From positions 1 to 64,000 of the IMG/VR virus record IMGVR_UViG_3300049847_000198: DNA of 64,000 nucleotides, one strand, 5' to 3'. Below are positions 1,583-56,566 of the stretch, one piece after another; the stretch's first letter is position 1; the number at the start of each line of letters is the position of its first letter. Below the pieces are notes generated by a model. That model saw only the letters and a program-made list of their open reading frames with translations, did no database searches and was not told where the DNA came from. The stretch comes from a virus. The translations under genes and the position numbers were made by a program.

Positions 1583-2509
1583 ATGCCTGACACAGCGTTT
1601 ACGCCTCTCTTCGGGTGGGCCGGAACCAGGGTCGCCGATGAGGCTTGGGAGCAGGTCGGCGTAGAGATGCCGAAGTTTCAGATCGCAGGATCGAGCCAGT
1701 CGTTCGCAGGACAATCTTTTCGTGCTTGGGAATTCGCTAGAAAGGTGTTTGGAAAAGACATTGACCGTGTCGTTCAACTCACTGGTGACTGCGTGAGTCG
1801 TTCCTCAGCAGATGTCTGCGAGTGGATTCAGTGCATCGAGATTGCGAACGGAGACAGGGAATCGTTCAAGCGAATCCTGTGCAGCTACAACTATGCAACG
1901 AGCCGCGTTCTAGTCGGAAAGAATCAGTTGCGAGGCGGTGCTGGGTCAGTCGGTTCTTGGATGGCGAAAGCGATTCAGCAGTACGGTCTTCTTGCGGATG
2001 ATTTTTCTGGAACGCCAGACTACTCTGGAAAACTGTCGGATGCTTGGGGTGACGACAAGCCGTATAACGGAATCAAGTTCAATCAGTTCATCGACGAGGG
2101 TGACAACCATCCAATTCGCACCGTCTCTCGCATCACGAAATGGGATGACCTTAGAGACGCAATCTGCAACGGGCACTTGGCTACAATCAGTAGCAATCGA
2201 GGATACGCATACAAGCCTGACTCTGACGGATTCCATCGACCAAGCGGTTCATGGTCTCATCAAATGGGAATCGTTGCCATCTCGGACAATCCATCGAAGT
2301 CATGGGTCGGTATATCTAATCAGTGGGGCGACATGTTCGGACATTTGAATGACTTTGAGACTGGCGAACCTTGGCCGATTGGTATGCTTCGCGTGCGTCG
2401 AGACGACTTTGAAAAGCACCACTTAACTTCAAGTGCTGAATGCTTTGTTTACAGTTCTTTCGACGGGTTCCCTGATCGTTCATCCGAACTCACAGGCTTG
2501 CTGATATGA
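1583..2509 (+). CDS. papain-like (C1 family) cysteine peptidase
   Basis: Q-x-x-G-D-C (oxyanion Gln, catalytic Cys), WSHQM (His), NQWG (Asn, cf. NSWG). Confidence 0.75.
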   Translation: MPDTAFTPLFGWAGTRVADEAWEQVGVEMPKFQIAGSSQSFAGQSFRAWEFARKVFGKDIDRVVQLTGDCVSRSSADVCEWIQCIEIANGDRESFKRILCSYNYATSRVLVGKNQLRGGAGSVGSWMAKAIQQYGLLADDFSGTPDYSGKLSDAWGDDKPYNGIKFNQFIDEGDNHPIRTVSRITKWDDLRDAICNGHLATISSNRGYAYKPDSDGFHRPSGSWSHQMGIVAISDNPSKSWVGISNQWGDMFGHLNDFETGEPWPIGMLRVRRDDFEKHHLTSSAECFVYSSFDGFPDRSSELTGLLI

Positions 2510-3177
2510 GACGACGCGATTTTCTGAGCACATTCTTGATTGGTAGTTCAGCTTGCTTTGCGCAAGATGGACTACTGATCGACGACCCGAATCCAGCAAA
2601 CGGATTGTTGATGGACGGCCACGAAGTCGGCGACGGTCTATTGATAGACATTCCGAAAGAAGTTTTAGAGTCTCAGAAAAAGATCGTCGTTCATCTCTAC
2701 TCGCCGACGTGGGCTTGCCCGCCATGCGATGTGGCCATCAAGGAATTGAAGGACCATATAGGCATCAAGCTAGTCGTCCATAAGGACGACGAACCACCTG
2801 GATACTTCAAAGGCAAGTCGTTTCCGATTCTGCATTGGGGGGAGGGTGATAAGTGGCAGTCTGGATGGAATGGGAAAGAAAAATTTCTAGCAAAGCTGCT
2901 TGGCGACGATTCTTCTCCACCATCCAAGAAGACGAATCAATCAATTTCGATCAAGGATTCTGGTGGTCATCACTGGTCCGTGAGCGGCGATTGGCAACCG
3001 ACATTACAGAAGACAATCAATCATCTGGTGCATGTGCATGGCTTTCAGCGTGAGCGACTGGCAAACTTGAATCTTGGTCAAGCCTTGACGCTTCACGATG
3101 CTGTGCATGAAGGGCGATTCAGTCGAGCGAAGCATGTTTCTCAGTATCAGCAGAGAACAGAGGATTGCCCAACTTGA
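2506..3177 (+). CDS. Tat-signal thioredoxin-like (CPPC) protein with His-rich C-domain; may read through UGA to 3246
   Basis: MRRRDFL twin-Arg signal; WACPPC; HLVHVH...LHDAVHE; frame stays open after TGA until TAA 3244-3246. Confidence 0.7.
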   Translation: MRRRDFLSTFLIGSSACFAQDGLLIDDPNPANGLLMDGHEVGDGLLIDIPKEVLESQKKIVVHLYSPTWACPPCDVAIKELKDHIGIKLVVHKDDEPPGYFKGKSFPILHWGEGDKWQSGWNGKEKFLAKLLGDDSSPPSKKTNQSISIKDSGGHHWSVSGDWQPTLQKTINHLVHVHGFQRERLANLNLGQALTLHDAVHEGRFSRAKHVSQYQQRTEDCPT

Positions 3178-3812: not shown

Positions 3813-3935
3813 ATGGCAACAAAGAAGCCGGCAAGACGAAGACCAGCGGCAAGAGCACTAACCGCGCAAGACGCTTTCACCGGCCTGTCTGGCGGATGGA
3901 AGAACTGGTCGCAGTTTGGAATGTCGATACAATGA
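3813..3935 (+). CDS. 40-aa basic peptide resembling the N-terminus of the 4938-5387 protein
   Basis: GGAG RBS; MATKKPARRRPAARALTAQDAFTGLSGGWKNWSQFGMSIQ*. Confidence 0.45.
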   Translation: MATKKPARRRPAARALTAQDAFTGLSGGWKNWSQFGMSIQ

Positions 3936-3942
3936 AACAACC

Positions 3943-4923
3943 ATGCCGTTGAAGCGGCATGGTCTGACCGAAATCGTATCTAGGAAATACGAAATGGCTT
4001 CCACGAAGAATACTCGATGCGTCAAGAAAAATGGTATCTGGGTTGCAAAAGACGGTGCTTACGAGTCTGTTAAAATCCAGGGACTGGTTCAAGCCGGAAA
4101 TCTGTTTTATGTCGCGGAACAAAGATACGCGGTTTGGAGTTGCTGGTGCGGCGAGTTCTTTGTTAGCAATTACCAGAACGTCGCGCGAGGGAAAGTGAAG
4201 TCGTGCGGATGCTACAGAAGAGAGATCGCGAAGATGCTGAACCAAAAGGCGACCAGGAAACTCAGGAAGGCGTCTACCAGCCAGATTAGTCTGGTTGATT
4301 TTGAATCTACCGTTTCAGTTGGCTTGCAGATCGAAGGACGGGAAGTAATTGGCGTCCCGTTTCGCCTGAAATTCAATGGAAGATCGCATAATCATGCCGT
4401 TTGTCTTTGTGTCAAATGCGGACGTTTTGATGTTTGCTCAACGAGTGACATTCAGGACGCGAAGCAATGCCGCGAGTGCTACTTGTCTGAACATACGACG
4501 CATGGCAGAACCGGGCAACGACTTTTCAAAATATGGCAAAAGATGATCGACTGATGCACTCTTGGAGGATTTGGCAGCAAGCGTTACGGCGATCGTGGAA
4601 TATCCGTGTGCAACGAGTGGAAGAAAGACTACGAAGCGTTTCATGCTTGGTCGATGGCTAACGGGTATCAAGACAATCTAACCATCGACAGACAAGACAA
4701 CGATTTTGGTTACAATCCTGAGAATTGCCGCTGGACGACGATGCTCGTTCAGGCGAACAACAAATCGAACAACATTCCGATTGAGGCGTTCGGTGAGACA
4801 AAGAATCTTGCGCAATGGGCAAGAGATACTCGCTGCGTTGTTGGATCGCAGACTATCCAAAATCGAATTGCTGGTGGGCTTCAACCGGAAATTGCAATAT
4901 CGAAGCCTCCTCGATCAAAATGA
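3943..4923 (+). pseudogene. HNH-type homing endonuclease interrupted by an in-frame TGA (4552-4554)
   Basis: ORFs 3916-4554 and 4606-4923 share a frame; joined they read HGRTGQRLFKIWQKMID*C...YGDRGISVCNEW...TIDRQDNDFGYNPENCRW, with the stop where the family has W..M..RC. Confidence 0.8.
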
Positions 4924-35146: not shown

Positions 35147-37638
35147 ACAGCCAACGGCGTAGCCGCGTCGCCTTTAATCTCGCGGCATGACCCTAAAGAA
35201 AGACAAGAGGCAAGAATCATGGCAACAGTCACGCGGATACCGACCGAAGCGGAATACCTTGAACGCGAGCGGCGAATGCTCGATAAGCAACTCGCGGCGG
35301 TTGAATCGGCACCGCTCGCGGAGCGGCGCGAAGGGGCGGCGGATTATGGCCGTGGATTGCGGGATAATCCCGAAATCATCGCGGAGCGTATCGGATGGAT
35401 TTTCAACGGTTCTTATGGTCGCGGAGCGTATGACCGCGCTCACGAATGGCTCGCGGCGTATCGCGAATCGCCGAAGCGTCGCGAGACGATGATTAAGTTC
35501 AATTTGTGCTGCTTGCTGGCGGCACTTGACGACGCTTGCCCGTCGCGGATGGCGGTGAATCAATGGAAAAAACTGACGACCGAACAACAACAACGGCTTG
35601 ACGTTCTTTTGACCGCCGAAATTGCCGACGCAATGAAGGGAGATGATTCCGAATGACTCCCGAAGAAATCGGCGAACTTGACGACAGCGAATTCGACGTT
35701 GACGCAATCAGAATCGACGTGAGGCACAACAACTTCTCCGCCGATCGGCTGGCAGAGTACCGGCACGAAAACATCGTTCAAGCGTCGCTCATCAACGGCC
35801 AGTTTACGCAAGCCCGTGAGCAGTGCCGATCTTATGGCTTGGACTATCAAAGCGAACTGAGTCGATTCAACAACCACTAACCCGAAAGGCAAACGCTATG
35901 TTGATTTTGAACAAGCTGAGTTCCCGCCGCGACAAGTTCGGGAATTGCTATCACGCAATCAGTGTTGAGAACGTCGAAACCGGATTGACCGCGTCCGCGA
36001 CAATCAGCGGCGACAACGCATCAACCGGACTGCTTGAATTGTTCGGAGATTGGGAAGCGGTGCGGCAACACTCACGAACACACGAACGCGAATTGCCTAT
36101 TCGCGAGTTTGACCGCTTCAAGAAAGACCTACCCTATGCCGGCTGTCGCGGTGAAGACATCGCCGCCTGGATTGTGTCGGCAGTTGGTGAACCGTCTGGA
36201 ATGAAAGAAAGGGCGACGGTGTAGCCATGTTTCCCGTTCCATTCTCTCGCGTTGTCGTCGCCGTCAACGGCGAACAACCGCAACGCTACGACCACAAGAC
36301 AGAGACCGCGCACGAGTTCGCGGCGATGCTCTACGGATGCGTTTTTCGCGAGTCACTCGGCAAGTATGCCGGGACGGAGTCGCTCGCCAACGGATGCCGC
36401 GACCGATTCACGGGCGGCACTATCACGAATTGAAAGGCAAAGAATCATGACCATCACAAAAAACGACACGCTAGACGTTCTCCCGCCATACAGCGACCGA
36501 TTCGTTTACCCAATCGGGAGACGCATCAGAACGGGCGAGGCTTGCGTTGTGTCTCACAATGTCGTCGCGGAAGTCCAGCCGGTTAGCGGCTGTCGTGGCG
36601 GCGACGGTATCGACGAATGCGCCGCAATGGCTCGCCAGTTCGCGGCACTGCCGAAGTTGCTTGAAGCGTTGGAAGATTGCATCACCAGCGACAAAGCCAA
36701 TTGCATCGTCACGAATGACGTGGCTTACATGCTTCGCCGATTCAAGTCTATCAACAAAATCGTCAGCGATGCGTTGTCGCTCGCGAACGGATCGGCCGTG
36801 CGATCGTGACCACGCTACCGAAAGGCTTCAAGAAACTGGCTTCAAGCCCGACGCTTGAGGGGCTCAAGAAACATATCTCCGCCTACTACGGCGGCGAGTC
36901 TAAAACGCTCGTTACGCGGGACGGCACTGCCAATCAATGGGACGTTTTTTCGAGCACTGTCGCGGGCAAGGCTTGCGGCACGATGGCCGTGGAAACATCA
37001 CGCGGTTTTTTCTTTGGGAGGATGGAAGCATGACATTCACGCAAAAACGATATGACGACGAAACGCAAACCGTGGCAAGGCTGGCGAAACAGTATCAAAA
37101 GCAAGTCAAAGGCATAACGTGGGGCGAGGCTATTCGATTGGCCGAAAAACACGTCTCAGAGCGAAAGGCGAATCCATGAACATCAAGGAGGCGGCATCAC
37201 GTTCTGTGCGCGAGAAGATGGCAAGGGAGATCATCTTTCAGGGCATGAGGGCGGTCGGCTATTCGGCATCCGAATCGTTCTGTCAGGCGAAGCGCATGGT
37301 GTCTCGGAACTTCGGCTTCTCGGCACAGATCGACCCTGCGAACTTTGCGGCGGGCATCATTTTTGAAAGGCCGAAACAATGACCACAAACAAAACCTGGG
37401 CCAGCCTCACGCTACTGCGTACCGAGGTCCGTTCGCTGTGCCGGCGGTACGCGGACGGGCAAGCCATCGACATCGCCGACGAACTCGGCCGGCTTGATCG
37501 GCTATCGCGGCCGGTCGGCAAGCGTGCCGAGATCGAAAAACTGATACGCGACGGACTATCCGATGCCGAGATCGTCAAAGCGTTGGGCGTCAAGAAACAA
37601 CAGGTCAATCTCATACGTCATTCAATGAAAGGGAACGC

Positions 37639-47487: not shown

Positions 47488-50400
47488 CTACGCCAGCAAA
47501 CCCGTTTCCATGTTCTGGATCGCACCAACCGTCTGGCCAACGCCGTTAGAGATCATGCCAAGTTTTTCGTTCAGCGTGCGGAGAATGTCCGTCAGCACCT
47601 TGGAATTATCAAGTCCGTCCTTTAATGACACTTCCATGCCCTTTGAAGAAACATCACTGCCGCCTCCGATACCAAGGCGGTTCATCCGATCTTCCTGTGC
47701 CTTCAAAGCGTCCTTGCCATACTCGATCTTCGGCATTCCTTTGACTTCGTCTTGTCCTGCCTTCCAGCCTTCATATTCAGTGTTGCCTCGTGCGCTGTAG
47801 TTCGGCTTCGCGGACGTCGGCATGTCCGACAAACGACCCGCAACCTGCTTCTCTCGCTGAGACGTTCCTTTCGTGTAGCGTCCCGTGTCTTTGTTCATCA
47901 ACGTGCTCGCCTCGTGACTGAACTCTGGAGTCGCCTTGTCCATCCACGAGTTTCTTTTAGTCGCAGCACCGACACGAGTCCCTCTACTACTCCCGTAGTC
48001 GGTTCGAGGAATGATCCCGCTTTTCAGGCTACCGAAACTCCAAGGTTCAGGTTTTTCTTCTTCTTTCGGCTTAGCGGCATCGGAAGCATTCTTGCGAGCA
48101 AGCATCCCTGCTCGCTTTGTGTCTGATTCAACCTTCTTCTGTGAATCAGTTTTCGGTTCTGCATACAGCCGCCCCGTTGCGTCTTGCGCCTTCTGGGACA
48201 TGCCACGTCTCTGCATTTGCTTGAGATGCTCTTCTTTGGCCATCTCGCGAAAATCAGGACCAAGCGGCTGCGTGTATGTTGCCGTAGATTTGCTTGACGA
48301 GGCATTTGCTCCCATGCCCTTTGTGCCCTGCGAGCGAGGACCGGGCATCGTGAACTCCATCTCGCTGGTTTCTCCACCAGTTCGAGGTTCAAGCATCTTC
48401 TTGCGAAGAAACTTCAACGACGATTCATCTGCGCCAACGCCAGAGGCACGCTTCATTGAGTCTTGCGCTCGCTGAGACAAAGCAGAATCCTGGTGCTGAT
48501 CATAGAGTCGTTCCCCTGCCCCGTAATGGTTCTGGCTATTCCCGCCTGCTCTAAGCTGGCCGAGAGTTGGCAACGGTCCAACAAAAAGACTGCGACGAGA
48601 AATCTTCTCTCGTTCTGCGTTCTTTGCCGCCACCGCTTCCTGTTGTCGTTTTCGTGACGCCTTGAGTTGCTCGTTGCGTTGCTGAAACGGCGTCAGCGAC
48701 TTCTTGAAATAGGATCTGGATTGAGGAGCGGCTGACGGAATCGCCGGTCCAGCACCGAACGATTCGTGCTGTGGTTTATTCACCGTTGGGCGAGTTTCTT
48801 TTTTCTTTTCCTCAACAGGCTTCTTGTCGTAATCTGGAGCATCGAACCACAATTGGCCGCGACCAGAACCCGCACCCCATCCAAAACCTCCGCCGCCCGC
48901 GAATCCCGGAACGCCAGCCTCGCCGAACATCTCCGCTGATCGCTTACCGTTGTTCTGCCCAAGCCGCTCCTGCTGCTGCGGAGTCAGCACGACTTCACCG
49001 GGACGCAATCGTGCCGGGATCGTGTCGCGTGCGTCGCCTCGTCCGCCTTCCGCATATCCACGAATCATGCCACCCATCGCGCTGCCGGGAAACTTAGCCC
49101 CTCTGGCAAGGTCGTCTCGCAGAGCCTTGATCTCGTCACGAATCTGTTTTTCAACTTCCAGTGACGGATCGTTATTCAAAAGAGATGTCTGGATTGTGTT
49201 ATACAATCCCTCAACGCCCATTACCTGCGCCGTACCCTTCGGGCGTGCGGCGTTATCCAGTTGCTTCAGGATCGTTTGCTGATCGCCAGCAGAAGAATCA
49301 TTAAACGACTCTTTGAGTGCTCCACGACTCTGCTTGATGTCGTCGAGACGGAACAAGCCTTCATTCACGACACCGGGAAGCATCTGACTGAAGTTACGCA
49401 GTCCTGCTCCGGCGATTCCGAGAGCACGTTTGAACTTTGCTCGCTCTGCGTCGGCTACAAGCTGCAACGCCTCTGGTTCAGCGTTCAGCTTCTCGTAAGC
49501 CTTACGTCGAATCTCTAACTCGACTACCAGCTTTTGACTCTCTTGCTCGATATCTCGCTGAGCGTTGAATTCCGCAAGAATTCGAGACTGACCTTTCGTC
49601 GTCATGTATTCTTGAGTTCGACGTTCTTTCTCTGGCTTGCTGGTCAGATTGTTATAGGCCGCTTGCGTGACATCGAGTTTCTCTTTGAGTTCAGGTCCGA
49701 GTCGTCTTACTCGCTCTTTCGCCTCCTTGATTGCCGCTTCATTCCCTTGAAGTCTTTCGCTTGCTCGACTGACGGCTTCCCCGAAAACAGGACGACCAGT
49801 TCTTGCTTGCTGGTTCCTTGCCTGCATCAACTCGTCTGATGTTGAGTTCGGATTCTCAGTCGCCTGACGAACGAGTTCCGCTCGTCCCTTGATGCTGTCG
49901 TCTAGTTCCTTCAGGAGAGCTTCAAGCTCCTTGTAAACACCAGCTTCTTTTTCTTTATCGAACTTTGCCTGTAGTTCGTTGATATGTTTGCGAGCGCGAA
50001 CGCGATCAAGTTCCGACATCTCAGTGAAATTCCACAGCTTTGGATTTTCTTTCGCAGCCTGAGAAAAATTCTTCGGAGCGTTGAATCTCCCTTTTGGTTC
50101 ATATTTTTCCTCCTCAAGCCCCAGTCGAGCGAAAGTGTCACCGAAAGCTGGACCAATAGACTCAAAGAATCCAGAGAACGCATCTTTGAAGTAATTGCCA
50201 ACCGCTGGAAGTGGAGCACGATTCGGGTCTCGCTTGTCTGGAATGGACTCCTTCTCCATTCGGTTCATCTGTGCCTTGAGCTTGTTGATCTCCGCGTTGA
50301 CCGCCATTGGGTCGCCAGAAATCTTCAGGATGTCTTCCGAGATCGAACCTGACGAAGATCGACCACGAATCTTCTCAACCTTGCCCATCGAGTCAGCAAG

Positions 50401-52510: not shown

Positions 52511-54052
52511 CTACGCCGGAACGACTGCGACTGTCGGCGATAGGCGGGACTGCCGAAAGCAGTCAACGAGACACTGCTCAGCGAACTTTGCGTCCGACTC
52601 CGTCACCAACAGGCTATCGTGGATCGTGCCAAGAAAACGCTTCGGTCTCGCCTTGAGGAACGCGGCAGCAGCTTTGTGGATCACGTACTGGCTTTCGATG
52701 TTCTGGAGTAGCTTCGGTAAGACCGAGTGATGTGACCGCTTCAAGGTGCAGATGATCTTCCAGACGTGAGGAAATTCCCTGACAAACAAATCTCGGAACA
52801 GGCGACCCGGAACGTCTTCTTTTTCGCAGAAGATGCACTCTCTGAAGAATGTCTGTTTGAACTCATGCCGAGCCATTGATGCGTAGCTGGTGCCAGCAGG
52901 CACTAGCTTTTGGAAGTGATCGTAGAGTTGGCCTTCACAGCAGAGCGTGATGTACCGCTCGCACTCTTTCCAGTGATGCTTTACCAGCCTGATCGCCGAC
53001 AGAACATCGCTTTCGATGCTCTTGCTCAGAGGAACTGCCGAAGTCGGTTCTTGGTACAATTCCTGTGTGTTTTTGCAGTCAAAATCACCGTAAGTCGTTT
53101 CTTTAGTTGATTTTTCGTTAGATTGTTGCATCATAAGGGTGTGGGAGGGAGAGGGGCTTTCCTGCGGTTGTGTGGCGTTGTCTTGTGCGTTTGTTACATT
53201 TCGCGTCAGACGTTCAGTTGTGACTTTAGCTACACTGTAGTCGTTTTGTAATGAGTACCGTTCGATCTTGTGTATCAACTCACGTACCTTGTCAGACTCC
53301 ACGGTGTCGCTGAGGTTGAAAAGAAACATCAACAGACATCCGAAGATGAACGGCTGGCTGTTTCGGACATCGGTGTTCCAGAGTGATTCTCCGTGCCATC
53401 GCAGGTATTGCCGCAGGTCCGAGGACAGGTTCGTTAGGTTACTATGAACTCGCCCGTACTTGTCTTCCATCAAAAAGAATTGATGCGTTGAGATCATGGT
53501 GATGCTTGACTCGTCCATCCATTGAGCGAACTTCGGGTTCTTGGTTGCCGAATAGTCCTTGGCGAATCGCACATGCCGCAGAGCCGCTGGCGTGTCGATT
53601 TCCAGCCCTCTAAGCAGTTGGTACAGGGATTTGATCGTCGGACTTGAGAACCTGTCCTGCTGATCGTTTCGGAACTTGTCGATCTTGCGGTTCAAGCGGC
53701 GGTTCTTGACCGGACGGATTACTCCGTAGGCGTATCGGAATGTGCCTGTCATGCGGTAGCTCCTTGAATAAAAACCAGCCCTATAGCTCAGATCGACCTC
53801 GATGACACCATTTTCTCTAAGCCAGTCGATCCACTTCGAGAGTCTCTTCCACGAAACGACCTCCCGTAGCTTGTCGATCTTCAAGTAAACCCAATCGTCC
53901 GGGTCGTATCGCCGCGAGTCGTGCATGAATCGCCCGTAGACGCAGTGAACGATGTAGGCGGCTTCCTCCCAGTGCTTCGAGAGTTCTGGCGGCGCACGAC
54001 TGGCGATATCCAGCGTTTCAGGCAGCGTCAGATATCTCTGCGTCCAAGCCAC
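52511..54052 (-). CDS. superfamily-A (PolA/T7-RNAP-related, TV-Pol-like) polymerase
   Basis: GRVHSNLTN, DVRNSQP (motif A), LQNIES, TIHDS (motif C); no exonuclease domain. Confidence 0.65.
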   Translation of the reverse strand: MAWTQRYLTLPETLDIASRAPPELSKHWEEAAYIVHCVYGRFMHDSRRYDPDDWVYLKIDKLREVVSWKRLSKWIDWLRENGVIEVDLSYRAGFYSRSYRMTGTFRYAYGVIRPVKNRRLNRKIDKFRNDQQDRFSSPTIKSLYQLLRGLEIDTPAALRHVRFAKDYSATKNPKFAQWMDESSITMISTHQFFLMEDKYGRVHSNLTNLSSDLRQYLRWHGESLWNTDVRNSQPFIFGCLLMFLFNLSDTVESDKVRELIHKIERYSLQNDYSVAKVTTERLTRNVTNAQDNATQPQESPSPSHTLMMQQSNEKSTKETTYGDFDCKNTQELYQEPTSAVPLSKSIESDVLSAIRLVKHHWKECERYITLCCEGQLYDHFQKLVPAGTSYASMARHEFKQTFFRECIFCEKEDVPGRLFRDLFVREFPHVWKIICTLKRSHHSVLPKLLQNIESQYVIHKAAAAFLKARPKRFLGTIHDSLLVTESDAKFAEQCLVDCFRQSRLSPTVAVVPA

Positions 54053-54551: not shown

Positions 54552-54854
54552 CTACTCATCGGCATATTCCTTTTTTGCCAGTGCCGTGAACTTCCTCGCC
54601 AGCGTCGCTGAGGTGTTGAACTTAACGATCAGATTGTCAGGCACTTGAACGCTCTCCCCGGATCGTGGGTTCCTCGCCTTGTGTCCGGCACGCAGACGAA
54701 CCTCAAAGACTCCGAGTCCTCTGACATCCACTCGGCGTTCCTCCTCCAGAGAAGCGACGATCGCCTTGAATGTTTTCTCGACGAGTTCCCTGGTCTTCTT
54801 CTCGGTCAGACCAGTCATGTCCGAGATGGTTGCAATCAGTTTTTTGTTGAGCAA
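54552..54854 (-). CDS. HU/IHF-family DNA-binding protein
   Basis: NKKLIATIS, VRGLGVFEV, ARNPRSGE.V.VP, VKF. Confidence 0.9.
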   Translation of the reverse strand: MLNKKLIATISDMTGLTEKKTRELVEKTFKAIVASLEEERRVDVRGLGVFEVRLRAGHKARNPRSGESVQVPDNLIVKFNTSATLARKFTALAKKEYADE

Positions 54855-54867
54855 GACAGACTCCTTG

Positions 54868-55048
54868 AACTCTCGACCCGCGAACTACTTTGTCAAAAAT
54901 TGTATGCAGGCTTACCGATCAGCGTCTCGGCAGCGGGCTTGCTGGCAAGCTTAGCAATGAGGCAAGCAGCAACAACGAAAAAGAGCGTAATGATGCAGAA
55001 TTCTTTCATTCCACGACTCCTTCTTTAATAACTCTCGACCCGCGAACT
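54868..55048 (-). repeat. 19-bp direct repeat (54868-54886, 55030-55048) flanking a 38-aa TM peptide gene (54893-55009)
   Basis: AGTTCGCGGGTCGAGAGTT on the minus strand, each copy just upstream of an AAGGAG RBS. Confidence 0.8.
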
Positions 55049-55111
55049 CACTAGCCAGACGGGATTGGTTCTGCCCACGAGTGCTCTTTCTGGCCTTGAG
55101 ACACATTAAAA

Positions 55112-55183
55112 TGCGACGTGACGGAATCGAACCGCCTTTCAGGGAGTTGAAAATCCCTTGCATGACCAATCTGCCAACGCCGC
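55112..55183 (-). tRNA. tRNA with Cys-like body and 8-nt anticodon loop UUUUCAAC (UCA or UUC reading)
   Basis: GCGGCGT/ACGTCGC+A; D-arm GCA-GATTGGTCA-TGC; AGGGA/TCCCT; T-arm GGCGG-TTCGATT-CCGTC. Confidence 0.85.
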
Positions 55184-55774
55184 ACGAACCTACCCGATCA
55201 CCCAATACTTCTCGCCCGTCAGCCAGTTATGAAAGTCTGGCGAACCTGGTCGATAGTGAAGAAACTTGTCGATCTTCTTTTCGAGTCGTGCCGCATCAAC
55301 CGGACGACTGCCTTTGTTCTCGACTTCCGAATACTTCCTGCCGCGAATGAACGCCAACGCGAGTCCCGCGTACCGAGACTCTTCTCGAAGTTCTCGAATG
55401 CGATGAGAGCGAAGCAGTTCGACGTAGATCAGTCCGCATCGCTTTTCTTCCTGACGGATCAGTCGCGACTCCGCAGCAAGCGATTTTGCGTTGATCCTGA
55501 GCCTATGGATCGCGAAGACTCTTTGGTTGTCCCATTCGCCGGGATGCGCGGCGGCGTAAACCAGTCGCCGTTCCTGACGCTTGGTTCGCTGCTTGATCTT
55601 CTTGCGTGCTCCGAACTGCGGATGACAGATGATGGCAGACGGAGCGAGTTGATTGTGGTTCTGGTTTTCGATGGTTGCTGTGGTCATATCGTTTTCCTTG
55701 GAATTGAAACCTGAGATGGAAGAAAGAAACGTACCGTCGAACACTTCAGGAATCACGGCGGACCTCTCGCGTAT

Positions 55775-56566
55775 TCAGGATTCTCCGTCAGGCTTCCATC
55801 CGTTACGGATCAAAACAGCGGCGAAGTCAGGCTTCAAATGATCTGGATGTTTTTTGAACTTGCCGTGCTCGTCAACGCTCCCGTTCTTGATCTTCAGAAG
55901 ATTGTTTTCGTCTACGACGCTCTGCGCCTCGGCGAGTGGGAATCCGTGCGCGACGGAGGTTCCGACAGCAACGACACTGATATCGGCTACTGCGTCAAGC
56001 ATTGCGACCAAATCAGGCTTCGCTGATTCCGCTAACCGCATCGCTGGATGAAAGAACAAGTCGTCGAAATCGACTCTTCCGGTATCGTGTCCAGTCGAAA
56101 TAAACACCTGAACTGCCGCCGCGTCTGCGTACTCAAGCACTTCTTCTAAAAGAAGTCGCACACGAAGCTCTCGCGTCTTGTAGTCGGAGACTGTCGGCGA
56201 CGGCGGGCATTCCTGCCCGAAGCCCTTCATCATCTGCCGCACGCGATCTTCGTGAGACGGCTTATGTGTCGGCCAGCAACCGATGAGTTTGTCTGCTGGA
56301 TACGACTGCAAAGAAAACGGTTCGCTCGGTACTCCACAAACGGGAACCAAGTTGCGTCCGGCTGACCCAGAAACTTCACGAGCAATACCCTCAAGCAAAG
56401 ACATGCGTCCTTCTCGCGTATAGGCCGTTCCGCTGGCAGACGTTTCGATGTCAAGTTGATCGCACCGCTCATGGTAACTAGCCACGTCTTCGGCGATCAG
56501 CGTTTGCAACGCAACTCCGCTTTCGATCTCTTCTTCCGTAAACGGTTCGGTTGGTTTTTCAATCAT
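55775..56566 (-). CDS. MazG/PRA-PH-like NTP pyrophosphohydrolase
   Basis: R..LLLEEVLEY, DAVADISVV, V.ENNL.K, GKFKK. Confidence 0.8.
   Translation of the reverse strand: MIEKPTEPFTEEEIESGVALQTLIAEDVASYHERCDQLDIETSASGTAYTREGRMSLLEGIAREVSGSAGRNLVPVCGVPSEPFSLQSYPADKLIGCWPTHKPSHEDRVRQMMKGFGQECPPSPTVSDYKTRELRVRLLLEEVLEYADAAAVQVFISTGHDTGRVDFDDLFFHPAMRLAESAKPDLVAMLDAVADISVVAVGTSVAHGFPLAEAQSVVDENNLLKIKNGSVDEHGKFKKHPDHLKPDFAAVLIRNGWKPDGES

Follow-up and report, generated by a model that had tools for sequence, protein, structure and literature searches.

The release factor 2 (RF2) gene prfB contains a +1 frameshift site, CUU UGA C, at which the P-site tRNA slips on CUU U, and it also uses an internal Shine-Dalgarno (SD) sequence. 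Phages in which a stop codon has been recoded reportedly carry suppressor tRNAs, and these are said to have been described by Ivanova in 2014 and Borges in 2022. The autoregulatory frameshift of prfB has been reviewed (PMC5009743). Frameshifting by +1 is also brought about by suppressor tRNAs such as sufD, sufJ and SufA6/SufB2 and by engineered quadruplet tRNAs (PMC4238358; 10.1101/2020.12.31.424971; PMC9094753; PMC8481270). Another group of systems consists of the arrest peptides ApdA, ApdP, ApcA and SecM (PMC7897499, PMC10951233, PMC10987492, PMC12992588). RAPP and RGPP are the cores of the ApdA/ApdP/ApcA arrest peptides and are avoided in proteomes (PMC12992588; PMC7897499; PMC10951233). 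Both are versatile as arrest cores, RGPP being the most robust, and arrest at RAPP or RGPP is not relieved by EF-P (PMC12992588). The window studied here is a 64,000-nucleotide stretch of phage DNA, positions 1 to 64,000 of the IMG/VR record IMGVR_UViG_3300049847_000198. It encodes, at 55112-55183 on the minus strand, a tRNA with an 8-nucleotide (nt) anticodon loop. Comparison with related loci suggests that this tRNA is probably a dedicated decoder of UGAA (+1) and that it operates an RGPP arrest switch for the neighboring gene, which is called X here.

The initial annotation of this tRNA described a well-formed cloverleaf with an 8-nt loop and proposed three functions, an opal suppressor reading UGA, a frameshift or quadruplet suppressor, and a decoy for anticodon nucleases. 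The cloverleaf was confirmed. Positions 55112-55183 match the Rfam tRNA family RF00005 with 48.0 bits (gathering threshold 29; E 3.6e-07; model positions 1-71), and the fold is also backed by covariation among sister tRNAs. ARAGORN, which had been named as an isotype check, places the gene at 55111-55184 as tRNA-?(Glu|SeC) with the four-base anticodon 'ttca'. The acceptor stem has 7 bp (GCGGCGU/ACGUCGC, including G4-U69) and the discriminator is A73. The D stem is GCAG/AUGC with a G13-A22 mismatch and a 7-nt D loop, the anticodon stem AGGGA/UCCCU has five Watson-Crick pairs, and the T arm is GGCGG-UUCGAUU-CCGUC. The universal bases U8, A14, G18 G19, U33, G53 U54 U55 C56 A58 and C61 are present, and CCA is not encoded. 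The anticodon loop UUUUCAAC (55146-55153, minus strand) consists of U32 U33, the four bases UUCA, and A37 C38; UUCA is complementary to UGAA. This assignment of the loop rests on the sequence, the consensus of sister tRNAs and the covariation of the register. A long variable arm is absent, as had been pointed out. The identity tRNA-Sec is rejected because the variable arm, helix lengths and D stem all fail: the variable loop has 4 nt, the helices are 7/5 and the D stem has 4 pairs, versus a long arm, 8/5 helices and a 6-bp D stem in tRNA-Sec. The Rfam tRNA-Sec model had no match in the window. The tRNA is the only one in the 112,081-bp virus record. Its 5' end lies 6 nt past the stop codon of X, and a promoter or terminator proper to the tRNA was looked for and none was found.

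The same loop is found in other phages. An IMG/VR scan by TTTTCAAC plus a T arm was used to find same-loop tRNAs. It returned 40 tRNA-Glu genes of the ordinary kind, their loop closed to 7 nt by pairing of the final C with G31, and two tandem canonical UCA opal suppressors with 7-nt loops, UUUCAAC and UUUCAAU, in a 436-kb phage contig (L050, 3904-3980 and 4005-4078). It also returned a solitary tRNA (L018) with the identical 8-nt loop UUUUCAAC. Exact and relaxed patterns of the tRNA had no match in IMG/VR, and a pattern scan of metagenomes gave only tRNA-Cys and tRNA-Arg(UCU) genes, whose likeness is partly forced by the pattern. tRNAs with the loop CUUUCAAU were located by ARAGORN, by Rfam or by eye in nine different contigs (L079, L080, L081, L082, L084, L085, L087, L089 and L092; L088 is the same sequence as L087 and was counted once). 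Variant loops are AUUUCAAC in L095, CCUUCAAU in L091, where the tRNA directly follows X, and ACUUCAAG in L102/L103. The loop type of the window tRNA is present in 15 other divergent phage tRNAs, and the consensus YUUUCAAY is invariant in the sister tRNAs.

When the 16 tRNAs are aligned as cloverleaves, 94% of the cells are paired and compensatory changes are seen at 18 of 21 pairs. None of 500 shuffles was as high, and slid controls gave 38-49%. For the anticodon stem, pairing is 88.8% and the covariation score 0.677 in the 8-nt register, versus 61.3% and 0.165 in the 7-nt register, which is no better than shuffles. The loop is therefore enlarged by one base, as in frameshift suppressors, and covariation across the 16 tRNAs backs this register. 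The acceptor stems are 100% paired with compensatory changes at 7/7 pairs, and the T arm is canonical. Other parts of the tRNAs vary. The bodies are heterogeneous and resemble different isotypes, the discriminators A, U, G and C all occur, and some of the tRNAs have poor D arms. Because bodies and discriminators are so heterogeneous, the identity of the amino acid inserted by these tRNAs probably does not matter, which would fit a role confined to decoding one leader site.

X is a 165-residue protein encoded at 55190-55687 on the minus strand. Its start is most likely ATG 55687, which is common to most relatives, and an SD-like AAGGAA (55694-55699, minus strand) lies 6 nt before it. There are 14 relatives in a set of 5.8 billion proteins, and most of them begin MTTAT, as X does at this ATG. 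The nearest two, P0004 and P0005, are 82-83% identical to X. An alternative in-frame GTG is at 55756; the gene call of P0005 starts at the equivalent of this GTG, and its first 16 residues are nearly identical. X has no match in Pfam or PHROG. AlphaFold predicts a helical hairpin (pLDDT 80.5; helices 55-83 and 89-115). For this fold Foldseek gave no match at E < 1, the best VIA result (Z 7.6) being generic helical hairpins, the ESM Atlas contained only unnamed clusters with scores < 0.9, and the PDB gave no informative match. X was not found in a bacterial genome collection, where the one match, an ABC ATPase, was spurious.

An alignment-based IMG/VR scan identified X homologues at 25 loci, and these nearly always adjoin a tRNA of the type described above. 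The spacing between the X stop codon and the tRNA is 6-13 nt in L079, L080, L081, L082, L084 and L087. X is the only protein common to the window phage and these loci, which implies that the cassette moves between unrelated phages. Two loci with X have a phage tmRNA directly upstream of a UGA-A leader and X (L091, 3598-3852, and L115, 2506-2928). One of these tmRNAs is standard, with the tag AKSFAVAA, and the other is permuted. Because X repeatedly adjoins suppressor tRNAs and tmRNAs, it may act on the ribosome or on tRNA-like RNAs, and the two tmRNAs are a hint that it deals with one or the other. A cultured relative of the cassette also exists. Stenotrophomonas phage DLP_5 (L227, NC_042082.1, 49873-50342), which is the same as L099, carries an amber version in which gp070, annotated as hypothetical, is the X homologue and tRNA-Sup-CTA (50270-50342) lies 7 nt past gp070.

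The third part of the cassette is located upstream of X. A gene for a MazG-like nucleotide pyrophosphohydrolase (55775-56566, minus strand; PHROG 671 E 3.8e-16; Pfam PRA-PH 27.2 bits) ends with UGA at 55777-55775 and is followed by A at 55774. The candidate recoding site UGA-A (55774-55777, minus strand) is on the same strand as the tRNA and 590 nt upstream of it. The 3' end of the gene reads GAA UCC UGA A UAC GCG AGA GGU CCG CCG UGA. Past UGAA, the +1 frame (55753-55773, minus strand) encodes Y-A-R-G-P-P-stop, in which the RGPP codons are AGA (55767-55765), GGU (55764-55762), CCG (55761-55759) and CCG (55758-55756). A core of the type R-[A/G]-P-P that ends a short upstream frame is what is found in arrest leaders. 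Two other features of arrest leaders are lacking. The motif is not translated in frame from its own start, as it can be reached only by a +1 step at the stop codon, and the gene downstream is X and not a Sec/YidC gene.

A stop codon followed by A is found 75-130 nt upstream of the conserved core of X in 22 of the 25 X loci, once as UAG-A. In these loci it usually closes a mini-ORF of 2-13 codons with its own SD, a role taken in the window by the 3' end of the MazG-like gene. The peptides encoded in the +1 frame include CRPP*, CRDPP, CRGP*, CIRDPP, YGAIRGPP, CWRCRGPP, CIRAPPP and WPARGPPG*, as well as CRARSPP, SEHRCRSPP, FHARDPP, CNKSPP*, CIGPPD*, LHPATGPP and CRSPT; IRGPP, ARGPP, RAPPP and RSPP are among the motifs that they contain. 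As a background, of 1525 other TGAA sites in these loci a single one is followed by the strict motif. The Arg of the motif is encoded by AGA (6), CGT (5), CGC (3), CGA (1) and CGG (1), Pro uses all four of its codons, and the codon before the stop is one of 12 different, non-slippery codons. This variety of Arg, Pro and pre-stop codons argues for selection on the +1 peptide and makes P-site slippage unlikely. In 10 of 17 leaders (L079-L101) stop+A is directly followed, in the +1 frame, by a Cys codon (UGC or UGU), which gives the string UGA-AUG-C and may mean either that the arrest peptide needs Cys or that decoding depends on this context. An independent case is L018, which combines the identical loop UUUUCAAC with an ARAPP leader and X. 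Its leader, AUG AAC UGA A GCU AGA GCA CCC CCC, encodes M-N-UGA-A and then A-R-A-P-P, and an ORF about 380 nt downstream of its tRNA matches 55190-55756 (32% identity over 85 residues, E 8e-10 in a small database). The minimum-free-energy folds of 12 out of 20 loci pair either the SD or the start of X with bases no more than about 20 nt 3' of the P-site Pro codon, and the partner is often the CCNCC of the Pro-Pro codons.

The tRNA and the leader match each other in two respects. In the window UUCA matches UGA-A at 55777-55774 and the +1 frame carries the motif, and the same is seen in 22 of the 25 X loci. In L101 the stop is UAG-A, the +1 peptide is CRAPP, and the tRNA loop ACUCUAAG presents UCUA. 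In L094 and L099 the tRNAs are ordinary CUA suppressors with 7-nt loops and the motif is in frame 0; the leaders are MKPF-UAG-VHNRSPP in L094 and MK-UAG-VYKPP* in L099. Altogether about 27 loci with 8-nt loops have the motif in the +1 frame, and only loci whose tRNA loop is 7 nt long have it in frame 0. Thus the stop type tracks the anticodon and the reading frame tracks the loop size. The best case for a net four-base step at stop+A by the 8-nt tRNAs rests on this double tracking.

A reverse test was done with 80 loci that were chosen solely by CTTTCAAT and a T arm. About 60 of the 80 are ordinary 7-nt tRNA-Glu genes in tRNA arrays, and X lies beside none of them. X (hmmsearch E 6.8e-13 to 3.8e-31) was found only beside loops that do not fit the 7-nt register of tRNA-Glu. 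Two of these loci repeat L084 and L087 and five are new (L115, L122, L128, L129 and L136). All five of the new loci have UGA-A leaders, and their peptides are LIRAPP*, YARPPPP, YIRAPPS, YKTARGPP and CLIRGPP*.

From these observations the following mechanism can be proposed. The leader, X and the tRNA would form a cassette on one strand, with the tRNA as its decoding part. The loop bases UUCA would compete with RF2 at the UGA-A that ends the MazG-like gene, and the tRNA would move the ribosome four bases there, a net change of +1. The ribosome would then read Y-A-R-G-P-P and stall at RGPP, about 70 nt before X begins. A ribosome stalled there would, in most sister phages, sit on the sequence that pairs with the SD of X, and the SD would be freed. 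X would be translated only when its own tRNA is present, charged and able to outcompete the release factor, and X would be the regulated output of the module. A wider proposal is that the cassette is a mobile three-part switch in which a decoder of UGA-A, or of UAG-A in some relatives, gates X through a hidden R-x-P-P and X acts on the ribosome or on tRNA-like RNAs; we consider this about as probable as its opposite. Of the three functions in the initial annotation, the frameshift or quadruplet suppressor is the one favored by the comparative evidence of +1 motifs and of loop size tracking frame. What the sequence comparisons establish is that the tRNA and its 8-nt loop are real and conserved, that they are linked with X, that stop+A followed by a +1 R-x-P-P is conserved, and that the kind of stop and the frame change together with the anticodon and the loop size.

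Several points weigh against the proposal that the tRNA is a UGAA decoder that switches X on. We infer, from sequence, that the tRNA is charged, that a four-base step and a stall occur, and that X is turned on and not off. The laboratory suppressors SufB2 and SufJ are reported to pair as triplets in the A site and to shift later, and only a net +1 is implied here. The fourth base of the leaders is always A and the matching base of the tRNA is always U, which leaves no covariation at that position. The window is unusual for the family, since a full-length gene and not a mini-ORF supplies the stop codon that would act as sensor. The leader of the window is known from this phage alone. It folds no better than shuffled sequences (z +0.36 to +1.96), and the SD of X (AAGGAA, 55699-55694) is unpaired in its minimum-free-energy structure. 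In a crude gene model, 18 of the 60 TGA-ended genes are also followed by A. UGA-A stops show no sign of being avoided, and decoding must therefore be inefficient or dependent on context. Finally, no such tRNA was found at 5-6 X loci, in contigs that are 43-89% complete.

The alternative that survives best, though it is unlikely, is that the tRNA does not decode. It could be a decoy for anticodon nucleases, a 3' processing signal of the X mRNA or a partner RNA of X, and the +1 step would then come from elsewhere, for example from a limitation of release factor as in prfB. The presence of X next to tmRNA in L091 and L115 suggests that X may work with tRNA-like RNAs in general, and the varied bodies and discriminators look as if the charging identity were immaterial. 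The poor D arms of some of the tRNAs point in the same direction. It is difficult to reconcile a non-decoding tRNA with the central loop bases, which always complement the leader (UUCA with UGAA, UCUA with UAGA), or with the tracking of frame by loop size. The 12 different non-slippery codons before the stop are unlike prfB, and the fully paired, fully compensated acceptor stems and canonical T arm are as expected of a tRNA that is charged and used by the ribosome.

Somewhat less probable than a non-decoding tRNA is an opal suppressor that works in frame. The 8-nt loop would be tolerated and UCA would read UGA as a triplet, and the product would be a MazG-X fusion or an HNH endonuclease that is whole again. 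Triplet reading with an 8-nt loop is known from the yeast mitochondrial tRNA-Thr(UAG) (PMC3113583), and one of the 7-nt loops of L050, UUUCAAC, is the window loop minus one U. X is also in frame with the MazG-like gene and no stop lies between them (55687-55777, minus strand), which means that triplet read-through of the MazG-like UGA would yield the fusion. The position of the motif in +1 at the loci with 8-nt loops argues against in-frame reading. In addition, the sequence past the leaders shows no conservation in frame 0, and in most loci this frame does not continue open into X. The phage as a whole offers no other candidates for read-through. A survey of all stops found no excess of TGA read-through junctions or of +1 continuations, and TGA junctions resemble those of TAA and TAG. 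Gene fusions by read-through or by a four-base step are rejected, since the long extensions past TGA are the next genes with their own SD and start, as at 36433, where TGA-A is followed by GAAAGGC and ATG 36447.

The HNH gene that an opal suppressor might repair encodes an HNH/AP2-type homing endonuclease (3916-4923, plus strand) and is broken by a single in-frame TGA at 4552-4554. PHROG profiles align unbroken across this stop (phrog_3377, residues 193-334), and the 122 codons past it are intact and conserved. These features would suit read-through. However, the context is UGA-U, and the stop replaces an Arg in the motif M-K-x-R-C that is invariant in four aligned phage homologues. E. coli arginyl-tRNA synthetase requires A20, and the window tRNA has no A20. 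The TGA is probably a recent nonsense mutation in a selfish gene.

The initial annotation had named the UGA codons at 3175 and 4552 as possible targets of the tRNA, and neither is suited to a UGAA decoder. The first is UGA-C and the second UGA-U, and a +1 step would break the frame at both. UGA 3175 is the stop of a thioredoxin-like gene and comes after C-P-T; the next stop in that frame follows 22 codons later. Partial or late recoding of the phage, which had also been raised, does not agree with the data. Under the standard code the coding density is 0.898, TGA is the commonest stop (68 of 154 ORFs) and large genes are intact, and on these grounds recoding of the whole genome is rejected. 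Nothing ties the tRNA to the envelope module, which had been suggested to be activated late. Taken together, the observation made in that annotation stands and its interpretation is supported in part, for the quadruplet option and not for the targets, recoding or envelope link.

A third alternative, that the tRNA is a tRNA-Glu(UUC) with an extra base 3' of the anticodon (UU-UUC-A+A-C) that reads GAA and perhaps shifts +1 there, is very improbable. A single inserted base separates the loop from UUUUCAA (with C39 next), which is common in phage tRNA-Glu, and Glu is among the readings given by ARAGORN. The body of the tRNA tells otherwise. It was compared with a reference set of 590 tRNAs (445 distinct) from contigs gathered for other ends, nearly all of them from phages. 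With the anticodon loop masked, the nearest unforced neighbor is a phage tRNA-Cys(GCA) in L036 with a score of 36, at which the isotype is right in about 81% of leave-one-out trials, and the best tRNA-Glu scores 12. The masked Glu profile, at -3.8 bits, is the lowest of 20 isotypes. These results and the lack of support for the 7-nt register lead us to reject the Glu identity; moreover, X lies beside none of the roughly 60 ordinary tRNA-Glu genes, and the UCUA of L101 is unreadable as Glu. With the loop included, the Cys (25.0 bits) and Phe (22.9) profiles lead, and Cys is not at the top when the loop is masked. The tRNA had been called Cys-like, and this holds for the body, whose G13-A22 pair, D loop of 7 nt and variable loop of 4 nt are those of tRNA-Cys. 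It does not hold for the loop or the discriminator. The compared tRNA-Cys genes (L003, L036) have CUGCAAA loops, U73 and A38, and the window tRNA has C38, no GCA and, as had been noted correctly, A73 in place of U73.

A sequencing or assembly error in the T run, or a decaying tRNA pseudogene, is the least credible explanation of all: the extra base does lie within a run of four T in a single sequence with no close relative, but 8-nt loops occur with different stems in 15 other independent contigs, all stems and universal tRNA bases of the window tRNA are intact, its position and spacing relative to X are conserved, and a matching UGA-A/RGPP site lies upstream. The possibility that the extra U is an error had been raised with the initial annotation, and on this comparative evidence the base is not an artefact.

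The record containing the window is from an uncultured phage and is 79% complete according to CheckV. No relative of this phage was found by blastn against a cultured-phage collection, and no close relative was found with the sliding clamp and a 513-residue protein as queries. The tRNA is within a run of minus-strand genes that includes sliding-clamp-like, MazG-like and HU-like genes. Two candidates for a second sensor in the window were rejected. At TGA-A 54020 the +1 frame reads ...SRAPP, and this RAPP is inside the conserved N-terminus of the 513-residue polymerase-like protein (52511-54052, minus strand). The homologues of this protein can be aligned from about residue 5 on, and where it has RAPP they have x-P-P (WPP, LPP, MPP). 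TGAA 43410 is inside the codons of an ordinary gene that encodes RDPPP. An arrest-motif leader was also looked for directly downstream of the tRNA, and only a 38-residue hydrophobic ORF ending in TGA-C was found there.

Some additional features of these genomes may be mentioned. In the 513-residue protein R-A-P-P occupies residues 19-22 (window positions 53987-53998, minus strand), an odd place for an arrest-type motif, so near the beginning of a genuine protein, and it might slow translation of that protein. The 38-residue ORF (54893-55009) contains a lipobox-like sequence. An exact 18-nt direct repeat, GTTCGCGGGTCGAGAGTT, is present at 55030-55047 and 54868-54885 (minus strand) and nowhere else in the genome. 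The two copies are just upstream of consecutive ribosome-binding sites, those of the 38-residue ORF and of the HU-like gene (54552-54854), and the repeat may be a shared operator or 5'-UTR element. At 1592-1784 (minus strand) of L224, the phage contig of L100, ARAGORN reports a tRNA-Ser(GCT) whose anticodon loop is interrupted by 110 inserted nt, which may be an intron.

The components of the proposed cassette are known, namely laboratory frameshift suppressors, RAPP/RGPP peptides and phage suppressor tRNAs, and their combination is not known from the literature searched. No paper that links phage suppressor tRNAs to arrest-peptide leaders, and no description of natural phage tRNAs for four-base decoding, was found in the open-access and bioRxiv literature. 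In the literature searched, four-base decoding by an enlarged loop is known from laboratory mutants and synthetic biology; here it would be natural, conserved in dozens of unrelated phages and joined to a known ribosome-arrest motif. If the proposal is true, the cassette would be the first case in nature of a quadruplet codon that serves regulation, it would give a suppressor tRNA a built-in means of testing itself, and evolution would have used quadruplet decoding as a regulatory device. RAPP/RGPP peptides would gain a new input, tRNA versus release-factor activity, and X, a widespread phage protein, would be marked as probably linked to translation. Natural UGAA and UAGA decoders with matched sensors would also be available for genetic-code expansion. 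The in-frame amber cassette of the cultured phage DLP_5 makes the idea testable at the bench.

How does the cassette compare with the systems described at the outset? Like the laboratory frameshift suppressors, the window tRNA has an extra loop nucleotide and four bases that are complementary to a four-base mRNA site, and it would likewise give a net +1 step. The laboratory suppressors are selected mutants or were designed, and their targets are sense codons (GGGG, CCCN, ACCN) or, in recoded strains, UAGN, whereas the window tRNA belongs to a natural family, conserved in unrelated phages, that would act at stop+A and apparently on one dedicated cis site. The suppressors of recoded phages, of which those of L050, L036 and DLP_5 (tRNA-Sup-CTA) were seen here, are phage tRNAs with a stop-matching anticodon, as is the window tRNA. 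Their loops are of 7 nt, as against 8 nt in the window tRNA, and they act at numerous in-frame stops in late genes, of which the window phage has none. A natural tRNA with an 8-nt loop is also found in yeast mitochondria, tRNA-Thr(UAG), but it reads CUN triplets in frame (PMC3113583), and the phage module has its conserved product in the +1 frame.

The leaders resemble ApdA/ApdP/ApcA and SecM in that a short peptide ending in R-[A/G]-P-P lies just upstream of the regulated gene and, in most sister loci though not evidently in the window, the SD of that gene can pair with sequence that would lie under the stalled ribosome. The known arrest peptides have a start of their own and are read in frame from it, they monitor protein export or membrane insertion, and most are small secretory or membrane proteins. 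In the phage leaders a stop codon hides the motif, which lies past it in the +1 frame, and the quantity sensed would be the activity of a tRNA versus that of the release factor. In this respect the phage leaders resemble prfB, where competition between RF2 and a +1 step at an in-frame UGA is likewise used as a regulatory sensor. The prfB frameshift depends on slippage and an internal SD, and the phage leaders have non-slippery codons and what appears to be a dedicated tRNA in their place.

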